From: a virus
Lineage: Duplodnaviria; Heunggongvirae; Uroviricota; Caudoviricetes
Length of the DNA: 21,111 nt
Strand: one strand, 5' to 3'
IMG/VR virus record: IMGVR_UViG_3300045988_115574
Span: 1-21,111 of that record
A program made the translations under genes and the position numbers. Below the pieces are notes generated by a model. It made no database searches, was not told the DNA's origin, and saw only the letters and a program-made list of their open reading frames with translations. Shown here in pieces: positions 12,394 to 21,111 of this stretch (positions within the stretch are counted from its first letter, which is position 1; each line of letters begins with the position of its first letter).

Positions 12394-13809
12394 ATGGCTA
12401 CGTGGCAACAGGGTATTAATTCTGGTGGTTTTCTGGCTGGCATCGGTACGCAAAATGAGAATGCGCCAAAGGCAAGCGACATTAACGCAACGCTTGGTCT
12501 GATCCGCGAAAACAATGAACTGGCTCGCTCAGGTGCAAATAACATTGGTCTGACCGCGTTACGTGGTCTGGCTGGAGTTGCTGATATTTACAATCAGGAA
12601 CAGCAACAGAAAGCTATTAGTGCGTTCAATAAGGTTCACGCTGATGCATGGGCTTCTGGTGATCCATCTGGACTATTTAAGTTTGCCCAGGAAAATCCAG
12701 CGTTTGTTGCACAGGCACAACAGGCGTTTTCCGGTCTTAATGAGCAGCAACGCAACGATATGGGCGATTTAGCCATGAGGGCTAACGTCGCTCTTTCCCA
12801 GGGACCGGAAGCCTACAGTAAATTCATTACTGACAACAAGGACAGGTTAAATCGCGTGGGGGCGAATGCTGACTGGATGATTCAGACAGGTATCCAGAAT
12901 CCAGAGCAGCTATCACACATGCTGACTACTATGTCTCTCGGTGCGCTTGGACCAGAAAAGGCGTTTGCTGTTCAGGACAAGATGGCTGGTCGTGAAATTG
13001 ACCGAGGCAAACTGGCAGAGACAATCCGCAGCAATCAGGCTGGAGAAGCACTTCAGGCGAGAGGGCAAAACCTTTCCTATCAGTCAGCAATGACTGGGCA
13101 CAATATCGCAGCACAACGCTTGGCTCTGGATCAGCAAGAGTTCGGGTTTAAGATGCAGCAAGCACAGGAAAAGGCTCAGCAGTTGATTAGCGAAGCACCT
13201 AAGCTGTCAGTAAACATGGAAAAAGGCATCGAGACGGCTGTAAACAATGCTACAGCATCATCAAACTCAGCCAATTCTATGAGTGCGCTTGCTCAACAGT
13301 TCAGAGCAGAAAAACCAACGACAGGTTTGTTCGGTAACGCACAGAACATGTTCGCAAAACTTACCGGAAGCGATACAACATTGCGTGATTTGCGCATCCG
13401 CCAAAATGCCCTTGTTAACAGTCAGGTTCTTAAATTCCTACCTCCCGGCCCCGCAACGGATAAAGACGTTGAGATCGTTCGACAGGGTGCTCCAACTGAC
13501 ATGGATAACCCTGAGACGGTAGCAAGATGGCTTGATGCAATGGCAAACCTTGAGCGACGAAACGCGCAGTTTAATGAGTTTAAAGCCGAGTGGATGAGCG
13601 CGAATGGCAACCCTGGACAATCGCGTAATGGCGGTCAGATATTGGGGTTGGATGTTAAAAAAGGTGAATCATTGGGGAGTGCCGTTAAGCGGTATATGTC
13701 AATGAATACTGACGCAGCGCCAGCACAAGATTCGACACCTTCAGGAGAACCACGGAATCAGGTTGGATCATATACCTCAAAATCAGGCATTCAATTTACG
13801 GTGGAATGA
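12394..13809 (+). CDS. 20: ejection (E) protein gp20 homolog
   Basis: 471-aa ORF (P22 gp20 is 471 aa), SD aagggg 7 nt upstream. Position between gp7 and gp16. Confidence 0.85.
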
Positions 13810-15647
13810 TGAAAGTAACTGCAAACGGTAAGACATTTACCTTCCCTGATGGTACGAGCACGGAAGATATTGGCACCGCCATTGATGAGTATTTTGCTGG
13901 TCAGGCTGTTCAGCAACAAACAGTTAATCAGGCCAATAATGAACCAGCACGTGAAGAACCATCATTGATGCAACAAGCTGGCGATTGGCTCACAGGTGGT
14001 CAAAGTGCAGGGCAAATTGCAGAGCAGGCTGGTCGTGGTCTGGTAAACATACCATTTGACGTATTGCAGGGCGGCGCAAGTCTGATTAATGCAATCAGTC
14101 AGGGGCTTGGTGGACCCAAGGTTTTGGATGATGTTTATCGTCCAGTAGACAGACCGACAGACCCATACGCACAAGCCGGTGAAACAATTGGTGGGTATTT
14201 AGTTCCAGGAGTTGGAACGGCAGGAAGCATGGCTATTGGATCACTGGCAGAGGCCGCAAATCAGAAAGGCGATTTCGCACAAAATGCAGCTAAAAATGCC
14301 GGAGTTAACCTTGCCGCTCAGGGGGTTCTTTCCGCAGCAGCAAAGGGAATAGGGCGTGGAATAACGGCTATAAAAGGTGATATTGCGCCAGAAGTGGCGA
14401 AGAAAATTGCCACATCAGAATCGATGGGCGTGACACCAATGACATCTGATGTTATCCCGCCGAAAAATGCTTTCACTCGCGGCCTTACTCAGGATGCCGA
14501 GGGGGCTTTGCTCGGGACAGGCTCAAAGCGAGCGGAGCAATATGCAACGCGTAGTAAGTTGGTAAGTAATTATTTTGACCGTTTTGGTGAGTACAACCCG
14601 GATGATGTGGTGAAATCTCTGACCACCACGTTAAGGGGACGGAAGGATGCCGCTGGCGCTGTTATCAATGACGTCACCAATAAAATGGGGGATGCCGCAG
14701 TTGATACCACAAACACTATGAATGCTCTGAATACAGCGATCGCAAGACAGGAACGGCTTGGGACGTCTGCCAATCAAAGCCTGCTTACATCCTTGCGTAA
14801 CCTACGCGAAGAATTAGCAAACCCTGCAACTGATTTGGATGTTACGTTTGATCTCTTGCGTCAGCACAGAACTGCATTTAGATCTAATGTTCAGGGAGAT
14901 GCTATGGTCTTCCCCAACCAGGCAAAAGCAGCTACCAATATGGTAGAGAATGCAATGTCAAAAGACCTTCGTAACGCAGTTGCTAAAAACCTCGGTGCAT
15001 CAGACGCAGCAAAATACCTTAAAGCAAATTCCGATTATGCAAACGTTTATAATAAGGTGCTTAATAAAAACATTGCCAACAAGCTCAACAAGGCAAGCAG
15101 TGAAGCCAGTCCTGAACTTATAAATACCGTTGTATTAAGCAGAAAACCATCTGACGTGAAACGAATCTGGAGCGCATTGGATGATAAAGGGAAAGATGCT
15201 ATGCGTGCAGCTTACGTCAGCAAAATAGCGGAAAAGGCCGGTGACTCTCCAGCCAAGTTCATCACTGAAGTTAATAAGCTTAAATCTCAGTCAGGCGGTG
15301 AAATTTACAACACTATTTTTTCTGGAAAGCACATGAAAGAGCTCGATGCTCTTCATGAAGTTCTACAGCAAACAGCAAGGTCAGACACCGCAAATGTAGT
15401 AACTCAGACGGGACAATCACAAGCCAACAGGATAAGGACGATTGGCGCAACTGCGACTCTTGGAGTATCAATGGGGATTGAGGCTGGTTTTGGTGCAATG
15501 ATGCGTTTGTATGAGTCCAAAGCAGCAAGGAATGCGCTCTTACGTCTGGCAAACACTAAAGCTGGAACGCCAGCTTATGAAAGAGCGCTAAATCAGGCTG
15601 CTACTGCCGTGCGCCCGCTCTTAGCTAACGAAGCGACCCGGCAGTAG
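13806..15647 (+). CDS. 16: ejection (E) protein gp16 homolog
   Basis: 613-aa ORF overlapping the gp20 stop (ATGA). P22 gp16 is about 609 aa. Last gene of the rightward structural block before the immI region. Confidence 0.85.
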
Positions 15648-15669
15648 CACTGTAAGCCAAGGACGGCAT

Positions 15670-16236
15670 TTATTTTATAGTTTTTATGAATTCTTTATTA
15701 AATCCCTTAGCTTCTCCGGGGTATCTTCCAAAGACAATTTTTATAAAAACAGAAAAAATAAAGATAGCAACGCTTAACAACAGTTGCAGTATCATTGGAA
15801 CCCAAAGAACTACAGGCTCTATATTCATGAAACCAAATATTCTTCCGGCGATCATGGCGAAGTACCACACTGTTATCAGCAAACTTAGTGGCATATGAAT
15901 TACTGATATTACCAATCCAAGAGCATCAGTAATTCTATTTTCAAATTTTTCAGGGGAAAACTTTTCTTTAAGGTAATTCAGTGCGCAGGTCTCATTCTCT
16001 GGATTTTCAGCATTTTTCCCTATAGCAATAGAAATCTCAGATATCCTTGATTCAATTCTTTTGCGTTTAATAAAACTAGAAAAAAAGAACCACGCAATCT
16101 GCAACCCTATCCCCATAAATAGAGTTGCGGCAACTAGCACAGCGTAACTCATAGAATCAGACACACCAACCTCTTTAGTTTTTCTAGTTACTTTGTCACG
16201 ATAGGATATGCGAATTGATAAAACTAAATTGCGCAC
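15670..16236 (-). CDS. AT-rich gene for a 3-TM inner-membrane protein in the position of P22 sieA (superinfection exclusion); start uncertain (GTG 16236, or internal GTG/ATG near 16170-16152)
   Basis: Minus-strand ORF convergent with gp16 (22-nt gap). Three hydrophobic helices ([74 protein letters not shown]) separated by a ~50-aa charged loop. Local GC is far below the structural genes. Confidence 0.6.
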
Positions 16237-16381
16237 ATGATAACTCAGTAATAATTGTTAATGAAAACATGATCACCTATATTGCACAAGGCGAAACAGG
16301 AAGCATAATCTGGTTTCATGAGTGTGATCACGTTTGGGTAAATCAAAGTCAAGAGGAAATACTTGAAATTATCAAAAATAA

Positions 16382-16963
16382 CTATCTAAACGTTGCACAC
16401 GACTCATCTATCCATTTTTCATAAAATTGTATACCGAGATAGGCAAGAACAGATGGATGTATATCAACAAGCTTTTCGCCAAGATGTTCTGTTGGAGGTG
16501 GATAATCTTTGCCTTGGTTTCTTACGGTTATAGGCATAGTTGTTGCTGGATGAAACTCAACTATCATAGGGTCGCCTTCGTATTTTGCTATTTTCCCTGT
16601 TGAATCAATGATTAACTCTTTAATATAATGGCTTCTTGCTCCCGGAAATGCCCCAAGAGTAGTATAAGGAGGTTCAAGTTTTGAGATTTCCATAGTGGAA
16701 TGATGATCAGCATTTCTTGCTTGGTGAAGGTAAGCAAGTGTTTTGTCTGTTTTTCTAAGCATGAACTTTTGGTTGAAGTGGCTGCTAAATTTTCCACTAA
16801 CCGGCTTTGTTGCACAGAGCAACTTACTGAAAGACTTTTCTATATGCCCAAGACATTCTCGCCAGTGCATTTCAAAATCATCATGGTTTGTAGATGATTT
16901 CATCTGCTCTAGGCACTTTTTAGCTGCGATGATTTCTTTTTTTGCTGGGTTGTAATCGATCAT
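16382..16963 (-). CDS. hypothetical 193-aa soluble protein, translationally coupled to mnt (hkcC-like position in P22 immI)
   Basis: ATG at 16963-16961 overlaps the mnt stop (ATGA on the minus strand). SD aagga 9 nt upstream. AT-rich. No motif I can assign. Confidence 0.65.
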   Translation of the reverse strand: MIDYNPAKKEIIAAKKCLEQMKSSTNHDDFEMHWRECLGHIEKSFSKLLCATKPVSGKFSSHFNQKFMLRKTDKTLAYLHQARNADHHSTMEISKLEPPYTTLGAFPGARSHYIKELIIDSTGKIAKYEGDPMIVEFHPATTMPITVRNQGKDYPPPTEHLGEKLVDIHPSVLAYLGIQFYEKWIDESCATFR

Positions 16964-17214
16964 TTTGCATCCTTGCCATACATGTTTTTAAGTGTCTCAA
17001 ATACCACAGACTTGAACTGTTCAGCCTGCATCTCGGCTAATCGTTCAGCTTCATTGCGATAACCTTTTACAGGAGATGGTCTCGATAGAGCATCTTGGAC
17101 GATTTGCAACAATTCTGAGTTCATTGATCTACCATTTGACTCTGCTCTGTATTTTAATTTTTCTCTTACTTCCAAAGGCATGCGGAAGTTAAAGTGCGGA
17201 TCATCTCTAGCCAT
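16960..17214 (-). CDS. mnt: Mnt repressor (ribbon-helix-helix, Arc/MetJ family)
   Basis: Translation MARDDPHFNFRMPLEVREKLKYRAESNGRSMNSELLQIVQDALSRPSPVKGYRNEAERLAEMQ... is near-identical to P22 Mnt as recalled. Confidence 0.95.
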   Translation of the reverse strand: MARDDPHFNFRMPLEVREKLKYRAESNGRSMNSELLQIVQDALSRPSPVKGYRNEAERLAEMQAEQFKSVVFETLKNMYGKDAK

Positions 17215-17236
17215 GCCATCACTCCAAGTTAGTGTA

Positions 17237-17265
17237 TTGACATGATAGAAGCACTCTACTATATT
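17237..17265 (+). promoter_or_regulatory. Pant promoter (-35 TTGACA 17237-17242, 17-nt spacer, -10 TATATT 17260-17265)
   Basis: Consensus-like sigma70 hexamers read directly, driving arc-ant rightward. The Arc operator sits between the hexamers and the Mnt operator at the start site, as described for P22 immI. Confidence 0.7.
17242..17262. promoter_or_regulatory. Arc operator
   Basis: ATGATAGAAGCACTCTACTAT matches the 21-bp P22 arc operator as recalled; lies between the -35 and -10 of Pant. Confidence 0.75.
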
Positions 17266-17270
17266 CTCAA
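17242..17270 (-). promoter_or_regulatory. Pmnt promoter (leftward; -35 TTGAGA = plus 17265-17270, -10 TATCAT = plus 17242-17247, 17-nt spacer)
   Basis: Hexamers read on the minus strand upstream of mnt; overlaps Pant face to face. Confidence 0.6.
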
Positions 17271-17290
17271 TAGGTCCACCGTGGACCTAT
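17270..17290. promoter_or_regulatory. Mnt operator (perfect 21-bp palindrome, core AGGTCCACCGTGGACCT)
   Basis: ATAGGTCCACCGTGGACCTAT is exactly self-complementary around 17280; its reverse complement reads the known P22 Mnt operator core AGGTCCACGGTGGACCT. Confidence 0.8.
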
Positions 17291-17304
17291 ATTGTGAGGT
17301 GAAC

Positions 17305-17466
17305 ATGAAAGGAATGAGCAAAATGCCGCAGTTCAATTTGCGGTGGCCTAAAGAAGTATTGGATTTGGTACGCAAGGTGGCGGAAGAGAATGGTCGGTCT
17401 GTTAACTCTGAGATTTATCAGAGAGTAATGGACAGCTTTAAGAAGGAAGGGCGTATTGGCGCGTAA
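17305..17466 (+). CDS. arc: Arc repressor
   Basis: [53 protein letters not shown] (53 aa) is near-identical to P22 Arc. ATG at 17305 with SD gaggtg. The longer ORF from 17242 is rejected. Confidence 0.95.
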
Positions 17467-17534
17467 AGTTGAAGCCCCAACTGCGGGAACAGTCAGGGCT
17501 TCTGTTGTCAGTAAATTCGTGGAGAAAAACCAAC
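17467..17534 (-). ncRNA. sar: probable sar antisense RNA, complementary to the arc-ant intercistronic region and ant ribosome-binding site
   Basis: By analogy with P22. Candidate leftward -10 TATACT (plus 17541-17546) just inside ant. Imperfect hairpin gaagccc(17471-17477)/gggcttc(17496-17502) near the arc stop. Ends are approximate. Confidence 0.4.
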
Positions 17535-18437
17535 ATGAATAGTATAGCAATTTTAGAAGCAGTGAACACCTCTTACGTACCTTTCAATGGTCAGCAGATT
17601 ATCACCGCCATGACTGCCGGAGTTGCATATGTTGCGATGAAGCCAATCGTTGAAAACCTTGGAATGAGCTGGTCAACGCAGCAAACAAAACTCATGAAGC
17701 AGATTAGCAAATTCAACTGTGTTCATATGAACATGGTTGCCGCTGATGGTAAGCTTCGTAAGCTACTCTGCCTTCCTTTGAAGAAGTTAAATGGATGGCT
17801 GTTCAGCATCAACCCTGAGAAAGTTCGTGCTGACATCCGCGATAAACTGATTCAGTACCAGGAAGAATGCTTTACTGTGCTGCATGACTACTGGACGAAG
17901 GGAAAGGCAGAAAATGCACGTAAGAAAACATCTGTTGATGACAGGACTCCGCTTCGTGATGCTGTAAATATGCTAGTCAGCAAAAAGCATCTAATGTACC
18001 CAGAAGCTTATGCAATGATTCATCAGCGTTTCAACGTGGAAAGTATTGAAGAGCTTGATTCATCTCAGATACCGCAAGCAGTAGAGTACATCCACAGGGT
18101 AGTGCTTGAAGGCGAGTTCATCGGCAAACAAGAGAAGAAAACCAACGAGCTTTCTGCAAAAGAAGCAAACAGCCTTGTATGGTTATGGGATTATGCCAAC
18201 CGCTCACAGGCATTATTCCGCGAACTGTATCCGGCGCTAAAACAAATTCAATCGAACTATTCCGGCAGATGCTACGACTACGGTCATGAGTTCTCGTATG
18301 TTATCGGAATGGCGAGAGACGTTTTAATAAACCACACACGAGATGTTGATATTAATGAGCCAGACGGACCAACGAATCTTTCCGCATGGATGAGACTTAA
18401 GAATAAAGAATTACCTCCTTCAGTACATAACTACTGA
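17535..18437 (+). CDS. ant: antirepressor Ant (AntA-type N-terminal domain)
   Basis: 300-aa ORF from ATG 17535 with GGAGA 9 nt upstream. N-terminus [44 protein letters not shown]... matches P22 Ant as recalled. The TTG-initiated extension from 17469 is rejected. Confidence 0.9.
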
Positions 18438-18537: not shown

Positions 18538-20511
18538 ATGACAGACATTACAGCCAATGTGATCGTATCGATGCCTTCGCAACTCTTCACTATGGCTCGT
18601 TCTTTTAAAGCCGTAGCTAATGGCAAAATTTATATCGGTAAAATTGACACTGACCCGGTAAATCCTGAAAACCAGATTCAGGTTTATGTGGAGAACGAAG
18701 ACGGCTCTCACGTTCCTGTTTCACAACCAATCATCATTAACGCCGCTGGTTACCCTGTATATAACGGACAGATTACCAAGTTCGTTACTGTGCAAGGCCA
18801 TTCTATGGCTGTATATGACCAATATGGTTCCCAGCAATTTTATTTTCCGAATATTCTAAAATACGACCCTGATCAGCTACAACTACGACTGTCATCTCCT
18901 GATGGCTTTAAATTAATAGGCCAGTGCGATAGTTTTGACGAACTGCGTTCTATTGTTCCGGAGCTTGAAGGCCAGAGGATTTTGTTAAAAGGCTGGCATT
19001 CTGGATCCCTGTTGGGCGGTGGTGAGTTTATCGCAAAGGCGACCTCTGATTTAGATGATGGAGGTGTTGTCGCTGGTAGTGGTGCTCTGAAGTGGGTTCG
19101 CTCTGCATTCGATATAACACCAGAGGATTTTGGTGTTACGCCATCTGATACGGATACTTTGTATGGACTTCAGGGGGCGGTTAATGCAGCATCAAAATTT
19201 GGTGTTCGCGTTATCATAACTGAAGAAATGGTATATCCAATTTCTGATAACATAGTTGTTCCTAGTAATGTGACTATGGAATGGCTGAAACCATCATTTA
19301 TTACGCTAACTGCCAAATCAACTCTTGGTGGAGTGATTGCTGTGCTTGGGACTTATAGCAACCCTGTTGACAATGTGCGTTTCATTAATCCACATATAGA
19401 TGGTGGGAATATTGGTTATCCTACGTATGATGTGCAAGGTGAAAATGGTATCAGCGGTAGTAAATGCAGAAACGTTTTGTCGATTGGTGGCGTGATACGT
19501 AACTGCCGCAGAGGTTCGTCATCGCAATACTCATCAGGCGGGAAGGCGTTTAATTGGGAATACGGCGTTGATAATATAAGAATTGAAGGTGCAAAAGTTG
19601 AAAGTTGCTCATCAGCATTTGAATTTGTTGGTCGTGAAAATGGTGTTGGCGAATGGACTACTGCAACAGACGTTCACTACTATAATTGTTCCGCTGAGAA
19701 CTGTGATCGAGTGATAAGAAACGTCAGAGAAATGGTGACACCAAGCTATGCTACAGATATTTCGTTCGGTAGTTTCAAAGATATCTACGCGCTAAACTGC
19801 GGGTTGGGATCAGTGCCGGGTAAGGAGTTAGACGAGGGGTTGGTATTGCTGGATCGCTCAGCGGATATTGATGTTGAGCTCACCGCAATGAATTCTGCCA
19901 ACTACGGCACGATTGACAGCCCACTGAGAGTAAGAAGAGGGTACAACAACAAAATCAACATAATGTTTAATGGCGTATGCCGTGTCGATGTTAACCTTAA
20001 AGGACCCAATAACGCTCAACCAAGTGGTGAGTTACGTGGCAACCATATCAATATCCAGCATATCGGGGCGTGCACCAATATCGTTGATATAACACATGGT
20101 GATAACAAGATTATAGGTAACCACATTTCAATTACAGCAGGTACTCTTATTGGCAATTTATTAACAGATTCTTGTGATGCACAACCGCAAATTGTAACTG
20201 TGACGAACGGTGTTTCTGGAGTTTCAGTATCAGGATCTCTGAATGATATTTTTGATAATTTTAATGGAGGATTTCCAAGTGGTACGTCTGCAACAACAAT
20301 TGGTAATGTAAGGATAAATAGTACCTCTTTTTCGTTTTCAAATGATAGCACAAGATTGTTAAGCTCGAACAGACTGCGGCTTGGGTCTTATGACACCGAC
20401 AAGATTGAGTTGACTAACCTCTCAATGAAACTCACTCTTCCTACTTCAGCTACCGGTCTGGCGAGTGGTGAATGTTACTGGAATAATAACGTACTAACGC
20501 GAGTTCCGTAA
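18538..20511 (+). CDS. 9: tailspike protein: P22 gp9-type N-terminal head-binding domain fused to a different receptor-binding domain
   Basis: 657-aa ORF with GGAG 9 nt upstream. First ~110 aa [60 protein letters not shown]...LKYDPDQ match the P22 tailspike N-terminal domain as recalled; the rest does not resemble the P22 endorhamnosidase domain. Confidence 0.9.
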
Positions 20512-20546: not shown

Positions 20547-21111
20547 TCACTCCACCTTTTCATCAAGCCAATCCGCCCACCACTGCATCATCTCCCTGCG
20601 TTTATCGAGATACTGAGCATGGTTGTAAATCCCACGCACAGATCCGCCGTTGGCATGTGCCAGTTGCACTTCAATAGCGTCAGCAGGCCATTCGTGCTCG
20701 TTCATAATTGTGCTGAATTCATGCCTGAACCCGTGACCGCTTTCCAGACCCTCATAGCCGATTCGTTTGATCACAAGTAATACCGCGTTCTCGCAGATTG
20801 GCTTCTTCTTATCGTTACGCCCGGCAAAAACAAACTCTGATACTGGTTTGGTGATGGAGCTTAACGTAGTGAGAAGTTCAACCACCTGGTCCGACATCGG
20901 GACCACATGAATCTTGCGTCCCTTCATCACACTGGCGTCGATAGTGATAATCCTGTTTTCAAAATCGACGTTATTCCATAGCATAGAACGAAGCTCTTTC
21001 GTTCTTAGGGCTGTGTAGCGTAAAACTTTGGTCGCAATGAGAGATACAATACTTCCTGAAAATGTTGCCAGTGCTTTGTTGAATGCCGGGATCTGGTCTG
21101 CAGGAAGAAAC
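20547..21111 (-). CDS. int: tyrosine recombinase / phage integrase, C-terminal catalytic part (N-terminus beyond the window)
   Basis: Minus-strand frame is open from the window edge to the stop at 20549-20547. Translation ...LRYTALRTKELRSMLWNNVDFEN...HGFRHEFSTIMNEHEWPADAIEVQLAHANGGSVRGIYNHAQYLDKRREMMQWWADWLDEKVE carries the conserved Arg, His-x-x-Arg and Tyr of tyrosine integrases. Confidence 0.9.
   Translation of the reverse strand, partial: FLPADQIPAFNKALATFSGSIVSLIATKVLRYTALRTKELRSMLWNNVDFENRIITIDASVMKGRKIHVVPMSDQVVELLTTLSSITKPVSEFVFAGRNDKKKPICENAVLLVIKRIGYEGLESGHGFRHEFSTIMNEHEWPADAIEVQLAHANGGSVRGIYNHAQYLDKRREMMQWWADWLDEKVE

Follow-up and report, generated by a model that had tools for sequence, protein, structure and literature searches.

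A HEPN-like candidate defence gene coupled to mnt, and a type A sieA, in the immI region of an E. coli P22-like prophage

The most AT-rich 1.3 kb of a 21,111-nucleotide stretch of viral DNA (the window) lies at positions 15648-16980, between gene 16 and mnt. The best explanation is that this part of the gene 16-gene 9 cargo region is a mosaic in which two accessory cassettes, independent of each other, lie side by side. One cassette is the exclusion gene sieA, as judged by homology to phage P22. The other, ORF193, encodes an uncharacterised protein with a predicted HEPN-like fold. We offer the explanation as a whole, including the role given to ORF193, tentatively.

The prophage is P22-like and resides in E. 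coli, and the locus is its immI / gene 16-gene 9 accessory region. The sequence-only reading of this DNA had reported a sharp drop in base composition between the structural genes and mnt, and this was borne out. The GC content of 15648-16980 is 0.366, compared to a mean of 0.477 (sd 0.039) for equal-length segments of the window. Just 0.2% of these segments reach so low a value, and the lowest anywhere in the window starts at 15671. The block is compositionally foreign. By feature, GC rises from 0.327 in the spacer and 0.349 in sieA to 0.387 in ORF193, 0.404 in mnt and 0.474 in gp16. The flanking genes are also as that reading described, with gp20 and gp16 on one side and mnt followed by the immI genes on the other; the order is gp20, gp16, then sieA, ORF193 and mnt, then arc, sar, ant and the tailspike gene. 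Two minus-strand genes downstream of mnt thus fall within the block (Table 1). Since the sar antisense RNA is present at full length, the immI region is canonical. DNA homology to P22 covers 14088-16182 and resumes at 17033, and in the non-P22 segment between these points ORF193 sits where P22 has orf59a, the mnt terminator and PsieA.

Table 1. Features of the gene 16-immI interval, in window positions
Feature	Position	Strand	Basis or remark
sieA, type A superinfection-exclusion inner-membrane protein	15670..16164	-	P22 SieA identity, phrog_7745, motif, hydropathy
Spacer, 217 bp, AT-rich	16165..16381	-	carries at its end the RBS AAAGAGG and the GTG that serve the cargo gene downstream
ORF193, uncharacterised soluble protein, 193 aa	16382..16963	-	RefSeq WP_000568382.1, 'hypothetical protein'
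P156-P-T-E-H-L-G162, second family motif	16478..16498	-	codons; between beta insert and last helix
Rx4H motif, R83-N-A-D-H-H88, putative HEPN catalytic site	16700..16717	-	codons; family-invariant
mnt, Arc/MetJ-type ribbon-helix-helix (RHH) repressor of Pant	16960..17214	-	Pfam Arc 2.8e-27, Repressor_Mnt 3.4e-11
Pant, promoter-like	17237-17265	+	consensus scan; overlaps divergent Pmnt; region 17237..17270
Pmnt, promoter-like	17270-17242	-	consensus scan; likely source of the mnt-ORF193 transcript
sar antisense RNA of immI	17467..17534	-	Rfam RF00262, 91 bits, E = 3.2e-19, full length

The most likely start of sieA is the GTG at 16164, which is preceded by AAAGAGG and gives 164 aa as in P22; RefSeq and the list of open reading frames put the start at 16236 (15670-16236, 188 aa). 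The product is identical to P22 SieA at 149 of 164 residues (91%) over its full length (E = 8e-113), and matches phrog_7745, 'SieA-like', over residues 25-188 of the 188-aa form (2.1e-108). Near its C-terminus is FxRYPxEAxxFNK, the conserved cytoplasmic motif of SieA, and type A SieA is recognised by its location between homologues of genes 16 and 9 in a P22-like prophage (PMC10883804, Leavitt et al. 2024). The gene order confirms that the membrane protein occupies the P22 sieA position, and hydrophobic stretches at residues 5-32 and 78-150 are compatible with the approximately three transmembrane (TM) helices that had been read from the sequence. Collectively, these results leave very little doubt that the membrane protein is an ordinary type A SieA, a known exclusion gene. 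It resembles P22 SieA in its 164-residue length at this identity, its place, its orientation, the motif and the hydrophobic profile. It differs in that the host is E. coli, whereas that of P22 is Salmonella, and in that the PsieA promoter region and the upstream mnt terminator have been replaced. By homology, the product would sit in the inner membrane and stop superinfecting P22-like phages from delivering their DNA via the gp20/gp16 conduit. The sequence-only reading had wavered between a known cassette and a replacement. The sieA half is a known cassette, whereas the ORF193 half is unlike P22 orf59a; replacement of P22 sieA by the block as a whole is ruled out, as sieA is retained. High identity to P22 SieA was what that reading itself took to mark a known cassette, so the sieA half is not novel and adds nothing new.

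The two genes had also been proposed to form one module co-transcribed with mnt. Co-transcription remains plausible for ORF193, which alone is physically coupled to mnt, but it is not evident from the sequence for sieA, because the 217-bp spacer parts it from ORF193. The single module did not survive comparison with other prophages. ORF193 stays with mnt while the gene downstream of the mnt-ORF193-spacer unit is swapped: depending on the E. coli prophage, it is sieA or encodes a 1-TM or a secreted protein. In Citrobacter, ORF193 lies in the ant-arc-mnt module of an otherwise different (lambda-J-type) prophage that has no sieA. The spacer is near-identical in three E. coli prophages with differing downstream ORFs; P22 homology begins just 19 nt before the sieA GTG, and PsieA is not conserved in the spacer. 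A scan of the spacer found no intrinsic terminator or promoter-like site on the minus strand between ORF193 and sieA. The spacer folds no better than shuffled versions (z = -0.10) and forms no terminator-like hairpin. We also considered a plus-strand 69-aa ORF (16215-16424, containing the string HECDH) as a third gene or antitoxin; it matched no family, its resemblance to a plus-strand HExxH ORF of P22 was not significant, and it is probably spurious. The ORF193 gene is present in only 21 of 5,426 complete E. coli genomes, whereas in 581 parts of the flanks are present and the interval between them holds other cargo.

The function of Mnt as the Pant repressor is well established. The Mnt encoded here is 79% identical to that of P22 (84 aa vs 83). 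The last ~24 codons of mnt (below 17033) belong to the non-P22 segment, and the C-terminal tail of the protein, ...MYGKDAK, is joined to a different N-terminal domain in another prophage (L050). ORF193 would thus have been imported together with the 3' end of mnt and the 217-bp downstream spacer. The overlap of the ORF193 ATG with the mnt stop (ATGA; ...GCA AAA TGA / ATG ATC GAT...), noted by the sequence-only reading, was confirmed, and an AAGGA Shine-Dalgarno sequence precedes it. This overlap is retained with three different mnt alleles, including a Citrobacter allele only 27% identical. In E. coli and Citrobacter the ORF193 gene is always ATGA-coupled to an mnt-type gene, and it is the downstream gene that varies. 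The Pant and Pmnt sites gave 11/12 and 10/12 matches in the consensus scan and correspond to the annotated P22 Pant/Pmnt and operators, within an 87%-identical segment. Since ORF193 is translationally coupled to mnt, it should be made from Pmnt in the lysogen. In P22, orf59a is likewise the first same-strand gene downstream of mnt. However, orf59a encodes 59-64 aa, starts ~100 bp past mnt and is followed by a terminator, whereas ORF193 encodes 193 aa, overlaps the mnt stop and has no terminator after it. The two share no sequence similarity.

The ORF193 product is soluble, as had been read from the sequence, with a highest 19-residue Kyte-Doolittle mean of 0.66. A profile search collected 177 clusters of relatives, and 1,777 representatives at 50% identity were found at E<=1e-3. 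Nearly all relatives are stand-alone proteins of 170-210 aa (roughly 195 aa), and the identical protein occurs on at least 1,000 contigs, named 'hypothetical' every time. ORF193 and 92 relatives gave no match to Pfam, NCBIfam, PADLOC or PDB sequences, and none to Pfam even at E<=10. The homology and defence-model comparison proposed by the sequence-only reading thus identified the membrane protein as P22 SieA but left ORF193 without any PADLOC defence match. Its one PHROGs match is phrog_23516, 'unknown function', and Foldseek searches of the PDB and BFVD returned nothing significant. With tblastn, no match to ORF193 was found in 50,697 deposited phage genomes; all known copies come from prophages and genomes. 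Longer relatives were searched for informative domain fusions and yielded only one weak DUF6941 match, in a single protein. A literature search found nothing on the protein or its accession.

The predicted architecture of ORF193 is a HEPN-like four-helix bundle (helices 5-23, 27-58, 61-88 and 170-191), in which residues 94-154, after helix 3 and before helix 4, form a beta-rich insert. The HEPN superfamily is built on a four-helix up-down bundle of ~100-120 residues in which inserts are allowed; its RNases carry a strongly conserved Rx4-6H at the end of helix 3, ahead of the connection to helix 4, with a polar N, D or H directly after the R, and they cleave RNA without metal at a composite active site formed by a dimer (Anantharaman et al. 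2013, PMC3710099). Besides the predicted bundle, ORF193 has the Rx4-6H, the polar residue after the R and the expected motif position: the Rx4H (83-88) ends helix 3, after which come a loop, the beta insert and then the final helix. All 93 of 93 aligned relatives have R83 and H88, and D86 is kept in 92. Position 84 is N in 82 of the 93 sequences, H in 8 and D in 2 (N/H/D in 92/93). The second motif is also well conserved, with P157 in 93/93, H160 in 88/93, G162 in 87/93 and P156 in 80/93. Many but not all HEPN families have a second acidic residue in helix 2, typically within Ex3[KR] (PMC3710099). The acidic positions of helix 2 in ORF193 are moderately conserved (D36 in 51/93, E31 in 48/93), and E31-x3-R35 is Ex3[KR]-like, but R35 is not conserved among the 93 relatives. 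Together, the predicted fold and the invariant motif suggest that ORF193 probably has a HEPN fold and active site. By this model it would be a stand-alone HEPN-superfamily RNase whose four-helix bundle carries R83-x4-H88 as catalytic motif, and it may be activated by formation of dimers or oligomers.

No similarity to a recognised HEPN family was found for the 93 members in Pfam, nor in NCBIfam, PADLOC or a PDB profile search. In hhalign, the ORF193 family and a Ymh/TIGR02391 HEPN alignment, built from the neighbour gene of one ORF193 relative, gave a probability of 0.1. Since sequence comparison often fails to link one HEPN family to another, the absence of profile similarity weakens membership but does not exclude it. 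HepT-type HEPN toxins (5yep, 7ae2, 8xdj) and minimal HEPN proteins (4nqf, 2hsb, 1ufb) are only 6-13% identical to ORF193 and show no profile similarity to it, and the extra beta domain belongs to ORF193 and not to them.

Because of the predicted HEPN RNase fold and the catalytic motif, the label of candidate single-protein defence gene is still reasonable, for ORF193 only. A role in defence or abortive infection, argued by analogy, is possible but falls somewhat short of probable. The closest analogue is HepS of the Salmonella prophage Gifsy-1, a constitutively expressed solo HEPN abortive-infection protein with no partner gene (PMC13043305; PDB 9OIJ/9OIK). Like HepS, ORF193 is a prophage-encoded single protein of <250 aa with an Rx4H. 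Both families lack a conserved partner, and each of the two proteins lies in a temperate phage's accessory slot and is probably expressed by the lysogen. No 9OIJ/9OIK chain was among the PDB sequence or fold matches of ORF193, the presence of these entries in the libraries being unconfirmed, and no obvious copy of HepS (STM14_3211) was seen in LT2 Gifsy-1 (L014). Our best reading, still tentative, is that ORF193 is a lysogen-expressed solo HEPN RNase that acts in abortive infection as HepS does. It would be inactive in the lysogen until another phage infects, whereupon RNA would be cleaved and the infection aborted; the beta-rich insert, with the conserved PPTEHLG following it at 156-162, may be the regulatory or sensing part.

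The neighbourhoods of ORF193 relatives bear on this role in both directions. Homologues at 27-41% identity are lone, opposite-strand genes beside lysis, terminase or glycosyltransferase genes in other prophages. Other relatives lie near IS elements, integrases and defence-type genes (Ymh/TIGR02391, PIN-Phd, DpdA). Some distant relatives are found in ordinary chromosomal neighbourhoods, which argues against a defence role. Neighbours differ and no partner gene is conserved, with the exception of mnt in E. coli and Citrobacter; the other relatives examined have no upstream RHH gene. No nucleotidyltransferase was seen in the neighbourhoods examined. HEPN/MNT modules have an MntA nucleotidyltransferase partner, whereas the neighbouring mnt here encodes an unrelated RHH repressor (Arc/Repressor_Mnt), a DNA-binding protein. 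We rejected ORF193-mnt as such a toxin-antitoxin module.

A type II-like addiction pair would suit the layout. Here the toxic RNase ORF193 would be neutralised by Mnt or by its C-terminal tail, and Mnt would control its own operon, so that the prophage or its immI region is stabilised. As in classic type II systems, a small RHH gene comes first and overlaps, by the 4 bp ATGA, the gene for a HEPN-like protein; the pairing is kept across the three mnt alleles despite their divergence, and the last codons of mnt travel with ORF193. However, the pairing is not family-wide, most relatives being lone genes. Mnt is of normal length with normal Arc and Repressor_Mnt domains, has no extra toxin-binding extension and already has its established role, and HepS shows that a solo HEPN protein can be non-toxic without an antitoxin (PMC13043305). 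We consider an addiction pair improbable. Less probable again, and in our view very unlikely, is a role in the phage's own regulation, in which ORF193, as an RNase or an RNA-binding HEPN protein, would target RNAs of the phage, be they immI transcripts (ant mRNA, the sar duplex) or others, and so reinforce the maintenance of lysogeny instead of defending against other phages. In favour of this, ORF193 is encoded alongside mnt, which serves to keep ant off, a canonical sar and ant adjoin the locus, and the Citrobacter gene is again within an ant-arc-mnt module although the prophage is different. Yet P22 and most P22-like phages keep lysogeny without ORF193, and the relatives of 27-41% identity are in phages or mobile regions with no immI genes nearby.

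A broader alternative is that ORF193 does not belong to the HEPN nucleases but is a helical-bundle and beta-domain protein with another role, such as a binding or inhibitor, anti-defence or other lysogenic-conversion function, and the R...H pair would be structural or serve a different chemistry. We regard this as unlikely.

The reading of ORF193 as a solo HEPN RNase can be extended, though the extension is doubtful. ORF193 might found an unrecognised HEPN clade in which a beta-rich module between helices 3 and 4, followed by PP-x2-H-x-G, serves as built-in phage sensor. The ~195-aa protein might then be a complete one-gene sensor-effector immune system, wired to immI via mnt coupling in enterobacterial P22-like/lambdoid prophages and produced exactly while Mnt holds the prophage in lysogeny. 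If the proposed role of ORF193 is confirmed, HEPN nucleases would gain a family that is widespread, with about 1,800 clusters at 50% identity, and to which current defence-finding tools are blind, because Pfam, NCBIfam and PADLOC lack it. HepS would be joined by another small single HEPN protein that both senses and kills, in which the distinct inserted domain could be the sensor. The P22 immI operon, a classic of gene regulation, would also prove able to harbour a defence gene whose translation is coupled to that of its maintenance repressor. Across E. coli prophages, the same mnt-ORF193-spacer unit is followed by three cargo genes that differ from one another and encode membrane or secreted products, which amounts to a natural experiment.

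Features of the window, the late region of an E. coli P22-like (Lederbergvirus-type) prophage, are listed in the table. The immI regulatory circuit is canonical because a full-length sar RNA is present between arc and ant. The integrase part directly follows the tailspike gene and, unlike in P22, no gtrABC-type O-antigen conversion operon lies in between.

Features of the prophage late region and the mnt alleles joined to ORF193 (window positions unless a locus is named)
Feature	Position	Strand	Remarks
Terminase, portal, scaffold and coat genes	upstream of gp20		
gp20	12394-13809		
gp16	13806-15647		
Membrane-protein ORF (sieA)	15670-16236, likely true start 16164	-	
ORF193	16382-16963	-	
mnt (allele 1)	16960-17214	-	the window's own
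Pant and Pmnt sites	17237-17270		divergent
arc	17305-17466	+	
sar, antisense RNA of immI	17467-17534	-	Rfam RF00262, 91 bits
ant	17535-18437	+	
Tailspike gene	18538-20511	+	
Phage integrase, C-terminal part	20547-20984	-	Pfam Phage_integrase, 2.2e-29
mnt allele 2 (E. coli SCAID URN1-2021)	L050 3278-3514		78 aa; DNA-binding half differs, ...TLKTMYGKDAK tail same
mnt allele 3 (Citrobacter koseri)			only 27% identical

The sequence-only reading had described 15648-16980 as a sharply AT-rich, two-gene exclusion or defence candidate co-transcribed with mnt. The observation on base composition was confirmed: the GC content is 0.366 compared to 0.477 for the whole window, a value this low occurs in only 0.2% of segments of that length, and the window minimum begins at 15671. 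In the sequence, the mnt stop does overlap the start of ORF193, the gene of a 193-aa protein (ATGA, with an AAGGA ribosome-binding site). Hydropathy agrees with a soluble ORF193 product and revealed hydrophobic stretches in the second protein, the claimed membrane protein, at residues 5-32 and 78-150. The interpretation of the block was partly supported.

The membrane-protein gene is sieA, a known cassette. Its product is 91% identical to P22 SieA over all 164 residues, matches the PHROG 'SieA-like' family (2e-108) and contains FxRYPxEAxxFNK, the signature of SieA proteins according to Leavitt et al. (PMC10883804). In P22-like prophages of Salmonella and E. coli alike, sieA is always located between genes 16 and 9 (PMC10883804). 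By homology, SieA would block DNA delivery via the gp20/gp16 conduit. The start is most likely the GTG at 16164, which gives 164 aa as in P22 and has AAAGAGG upstream, rather than 16236. RefSeq SieA is a 188-aa protein from the GTG at 16236, in places named 'hypothetical protein', and its 24 extra codons fall within a conserved 217-bp spacer between ORF193 and sieA.

DNA homology to P22 extends from gp16 through sieA up to 16182 and picks up again at 17033, inside mnt. In P22, this interval contains a putative PsieA promoter, a 121-aa plus-strand ORF without annotation, the mnt terminator and orf59a, whereas in the window it is occupied by the spacer and ORF193, and the last ~24 mnt codons differ in sequence. 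The window's Mnt still shares 79% identity with that of P22, and its two Pfam domains, Arc and Repressor_Mnt, are retained. ORF193 and orf59a were unrelated on comparison. From P22 biology and the translational coupling, ORF193 would be made from Pmnt in the lysogen, with transcription possibly reading through into sieA. Between ORF193 and sieA, a site scan detected neither a terminator-like hairpin nor a good sigma-70 match, and this stretch folded no better than shuffled sequence. Since the spacer parts the two genes, physical coupling to mnt is confined to ORF193.

The unannotated P22 ORF (121-125 aa; L001 2084/2096-2461, BK000583 13849/13861-14226) lies between sieA and orf59a, overlaps the annotated PsieA and terminates at the mnt terminator. 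Its sequence includes HECAH, an HExxH string, and it matches at 1.4e-39 the family phrog_1365 (unknown function). A 69-aa TTG-start ORF with HECDH was also observed in the spacer (16215-16424, plus strand), antisense to the ORF193 3' end. It had no significant match to any family or to the P22 ORF and is probably spurious.

Parts of 15300-17500 were found in 581 E. coli genomes, the majority with other genes in this place; the gp16-mnt interval is a cargo hotspot in E. coli P22-like prophages. Elsewhere this interval (equivalent to 15648-16960) holds, for example, genes for a Rap1a/Tai family immunity protein, a P63C-domain protein, a transthyretin-like peptidase-associated protein or sets of as many as four hypothetical proteins. 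The stretch 16183-17032 is present at 99-100% identity in 21 of 5,426 complete E. coli genomes, chromosomal every time. ORF193 is joined by the identical ATGA overlap to three different mnt alleles, and the Citrobacter koseri pair lies inside an ant-arc-mnt module of a lambda-J-type prophage without sieA. The 78-aa allele probably has a different operator specificity, judging from its sequence. The window's mnt is itself mosaic (16960-17033), its P22-like part stopping at 17033, which implies recombination inside the gene. Three E. coli prophages (window 16165-16381; L049 2242-2479; L050 2480-2699) share a nearly identical spacer, ribosome-binding site and GTG included, but the genes after it are unrelated, encoding SieA, a ~106-aa protein with one TM segment and a ~122-aa secreted protein. 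The mnt 3' end, ORF193 and the spacer thus form one mobile unit and sieA another, rather than the single two-gene module first envisaged. The spacer end looks like a recombination joint for cassette swapping; a similar ...AAAACTAA(A/G)GAGGTTGGTGTG joint lies upstream of sieA in P22.

ORF193 represents a real, conserved, unannotated protein family. The exact sequence is found on at least 1,000 contigs and is named 'hypothetical protein' by RefSeq and all other sources. Searches of Pfam, NCBIfam and the defence models of PADLOC gave no match, PHROGs gave a single family of unknown function, and tblastn over 50,697 deposited phage genomes returned nothing. A single-sequence search recovered 7 clusters, and a profile built from these recovered 177. 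When 1.84 billion representatives were searched exhaustively with an HMM, 1,777 matched at E<=1e-3 and 144 at E<=1e-30; almost all of the matches are stand-alone proteins 170-210 aa long. None of 93 members had a Pfam domain, and the longer members showed no informative fusion.

AlphaFold2, run with the 93-sequence family alignment, returned a confident model (pLDDT 94.7, pTM 0.86) in which residues 5-23, 27-58, 61-88 and 170-191 form helices, the third of them kinked at 73, and residues 94-154 are rich in beta structure. R83, H88 and P157 are invariant, and the local motif around R83/H88 is [QH]-A-R-[N/H/D]-A-D-x-H. Within the HEPN superfamily, Rx4-6H is conserved more than any other feature, with N, D or H typically directly after the R (PMC3710099); ORF193 has the Rx4-6H spacing, the N/D/H residue and the motif placement drawn from that work. 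Together, the model and motif suggest that ORF193 is probably a HEPN protein. In helix 2, the family has the optional acidic motif in weak form. Profile methods tied the family to no recognised HEPN family, hhalign against a Ymh/TIGR02391 alignment made for this analysis found no link, and Foldseek with ORF193 gave no significant match in the PDB or BFVD. To our knowledge, the beta insert between helices 3 and 4 and the PPTEHLG motif after it have no known HEPN counterpart. That ORF193 is not a HEPN nuclease at all is unlikely, yet carries appreciable weight.

The nearest functional precedent, likened by description and not by sequence, is HepS of Gifsy-1, a solo, constitutively expressed HEPN protein without a partner, which is activated by siphovirus tail-tip proteins and cuts tRNA anticodon loops (PMC13043305). 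No chain of the HepS structure 9OIJ, whose presence in the libraries is unconfirmed, was among the structure or sequence matches of ORF193. By this analogy, ORF193 would act on its own as a HEPN-type RNase made in the lysogen, staying latent until infection by another phage, when it would cleave RNA and abort that infection; the beta insert would likely be the regulatory or sensing part. Such a defence role is tentative, falling a little short of an even call. Alternatively, Mnt could be the antitoxin of a type II toxin-antitoxin-like pair, which the mnt-ORF193 layout fits, but most relatives of ORF193 lack this pairing and Mnt has no extra domain, making the pair quite improbable. An RNase serving immI regulation is less probable still, as P22 manages without ORF193 and immI is absent around the relatives. 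For ORF193, the analysis showed how the gene is laid out, its conservation, the predicted fold, the motif and the accessory-gene settings; expression, catalysis, activation and phenotype are inferred. The exclusion/defence claim lost its novelty for sieA, already known, and kept a candidate in ORF193, for whose unannotated family a solo HEPN-like prophage accessory protein is the best description.

Relatives at 27-53% identity are lone genes, often opposite in strand to their neighbours, and no conserved partner gene was found across the family neighbourhoods. In other prophages they lie beside lysis, small-terminase/HNH, glycosyltransferase or tailspike genes; some are near IS elements and integrases, and a few occur in ordinary chromosomal settings. 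At L052 5013-6609, the gene for a Ymh/TIGR02391 (HEPN-family) protein is immediately followed by the distant relative P0015, and a DEAD/ResIII helicase, a Phd-PIN pair, an IS1 transposase and DpdA are encoded nearby. This setting is defence-island-like, with two HEPN-type genes adjacent.
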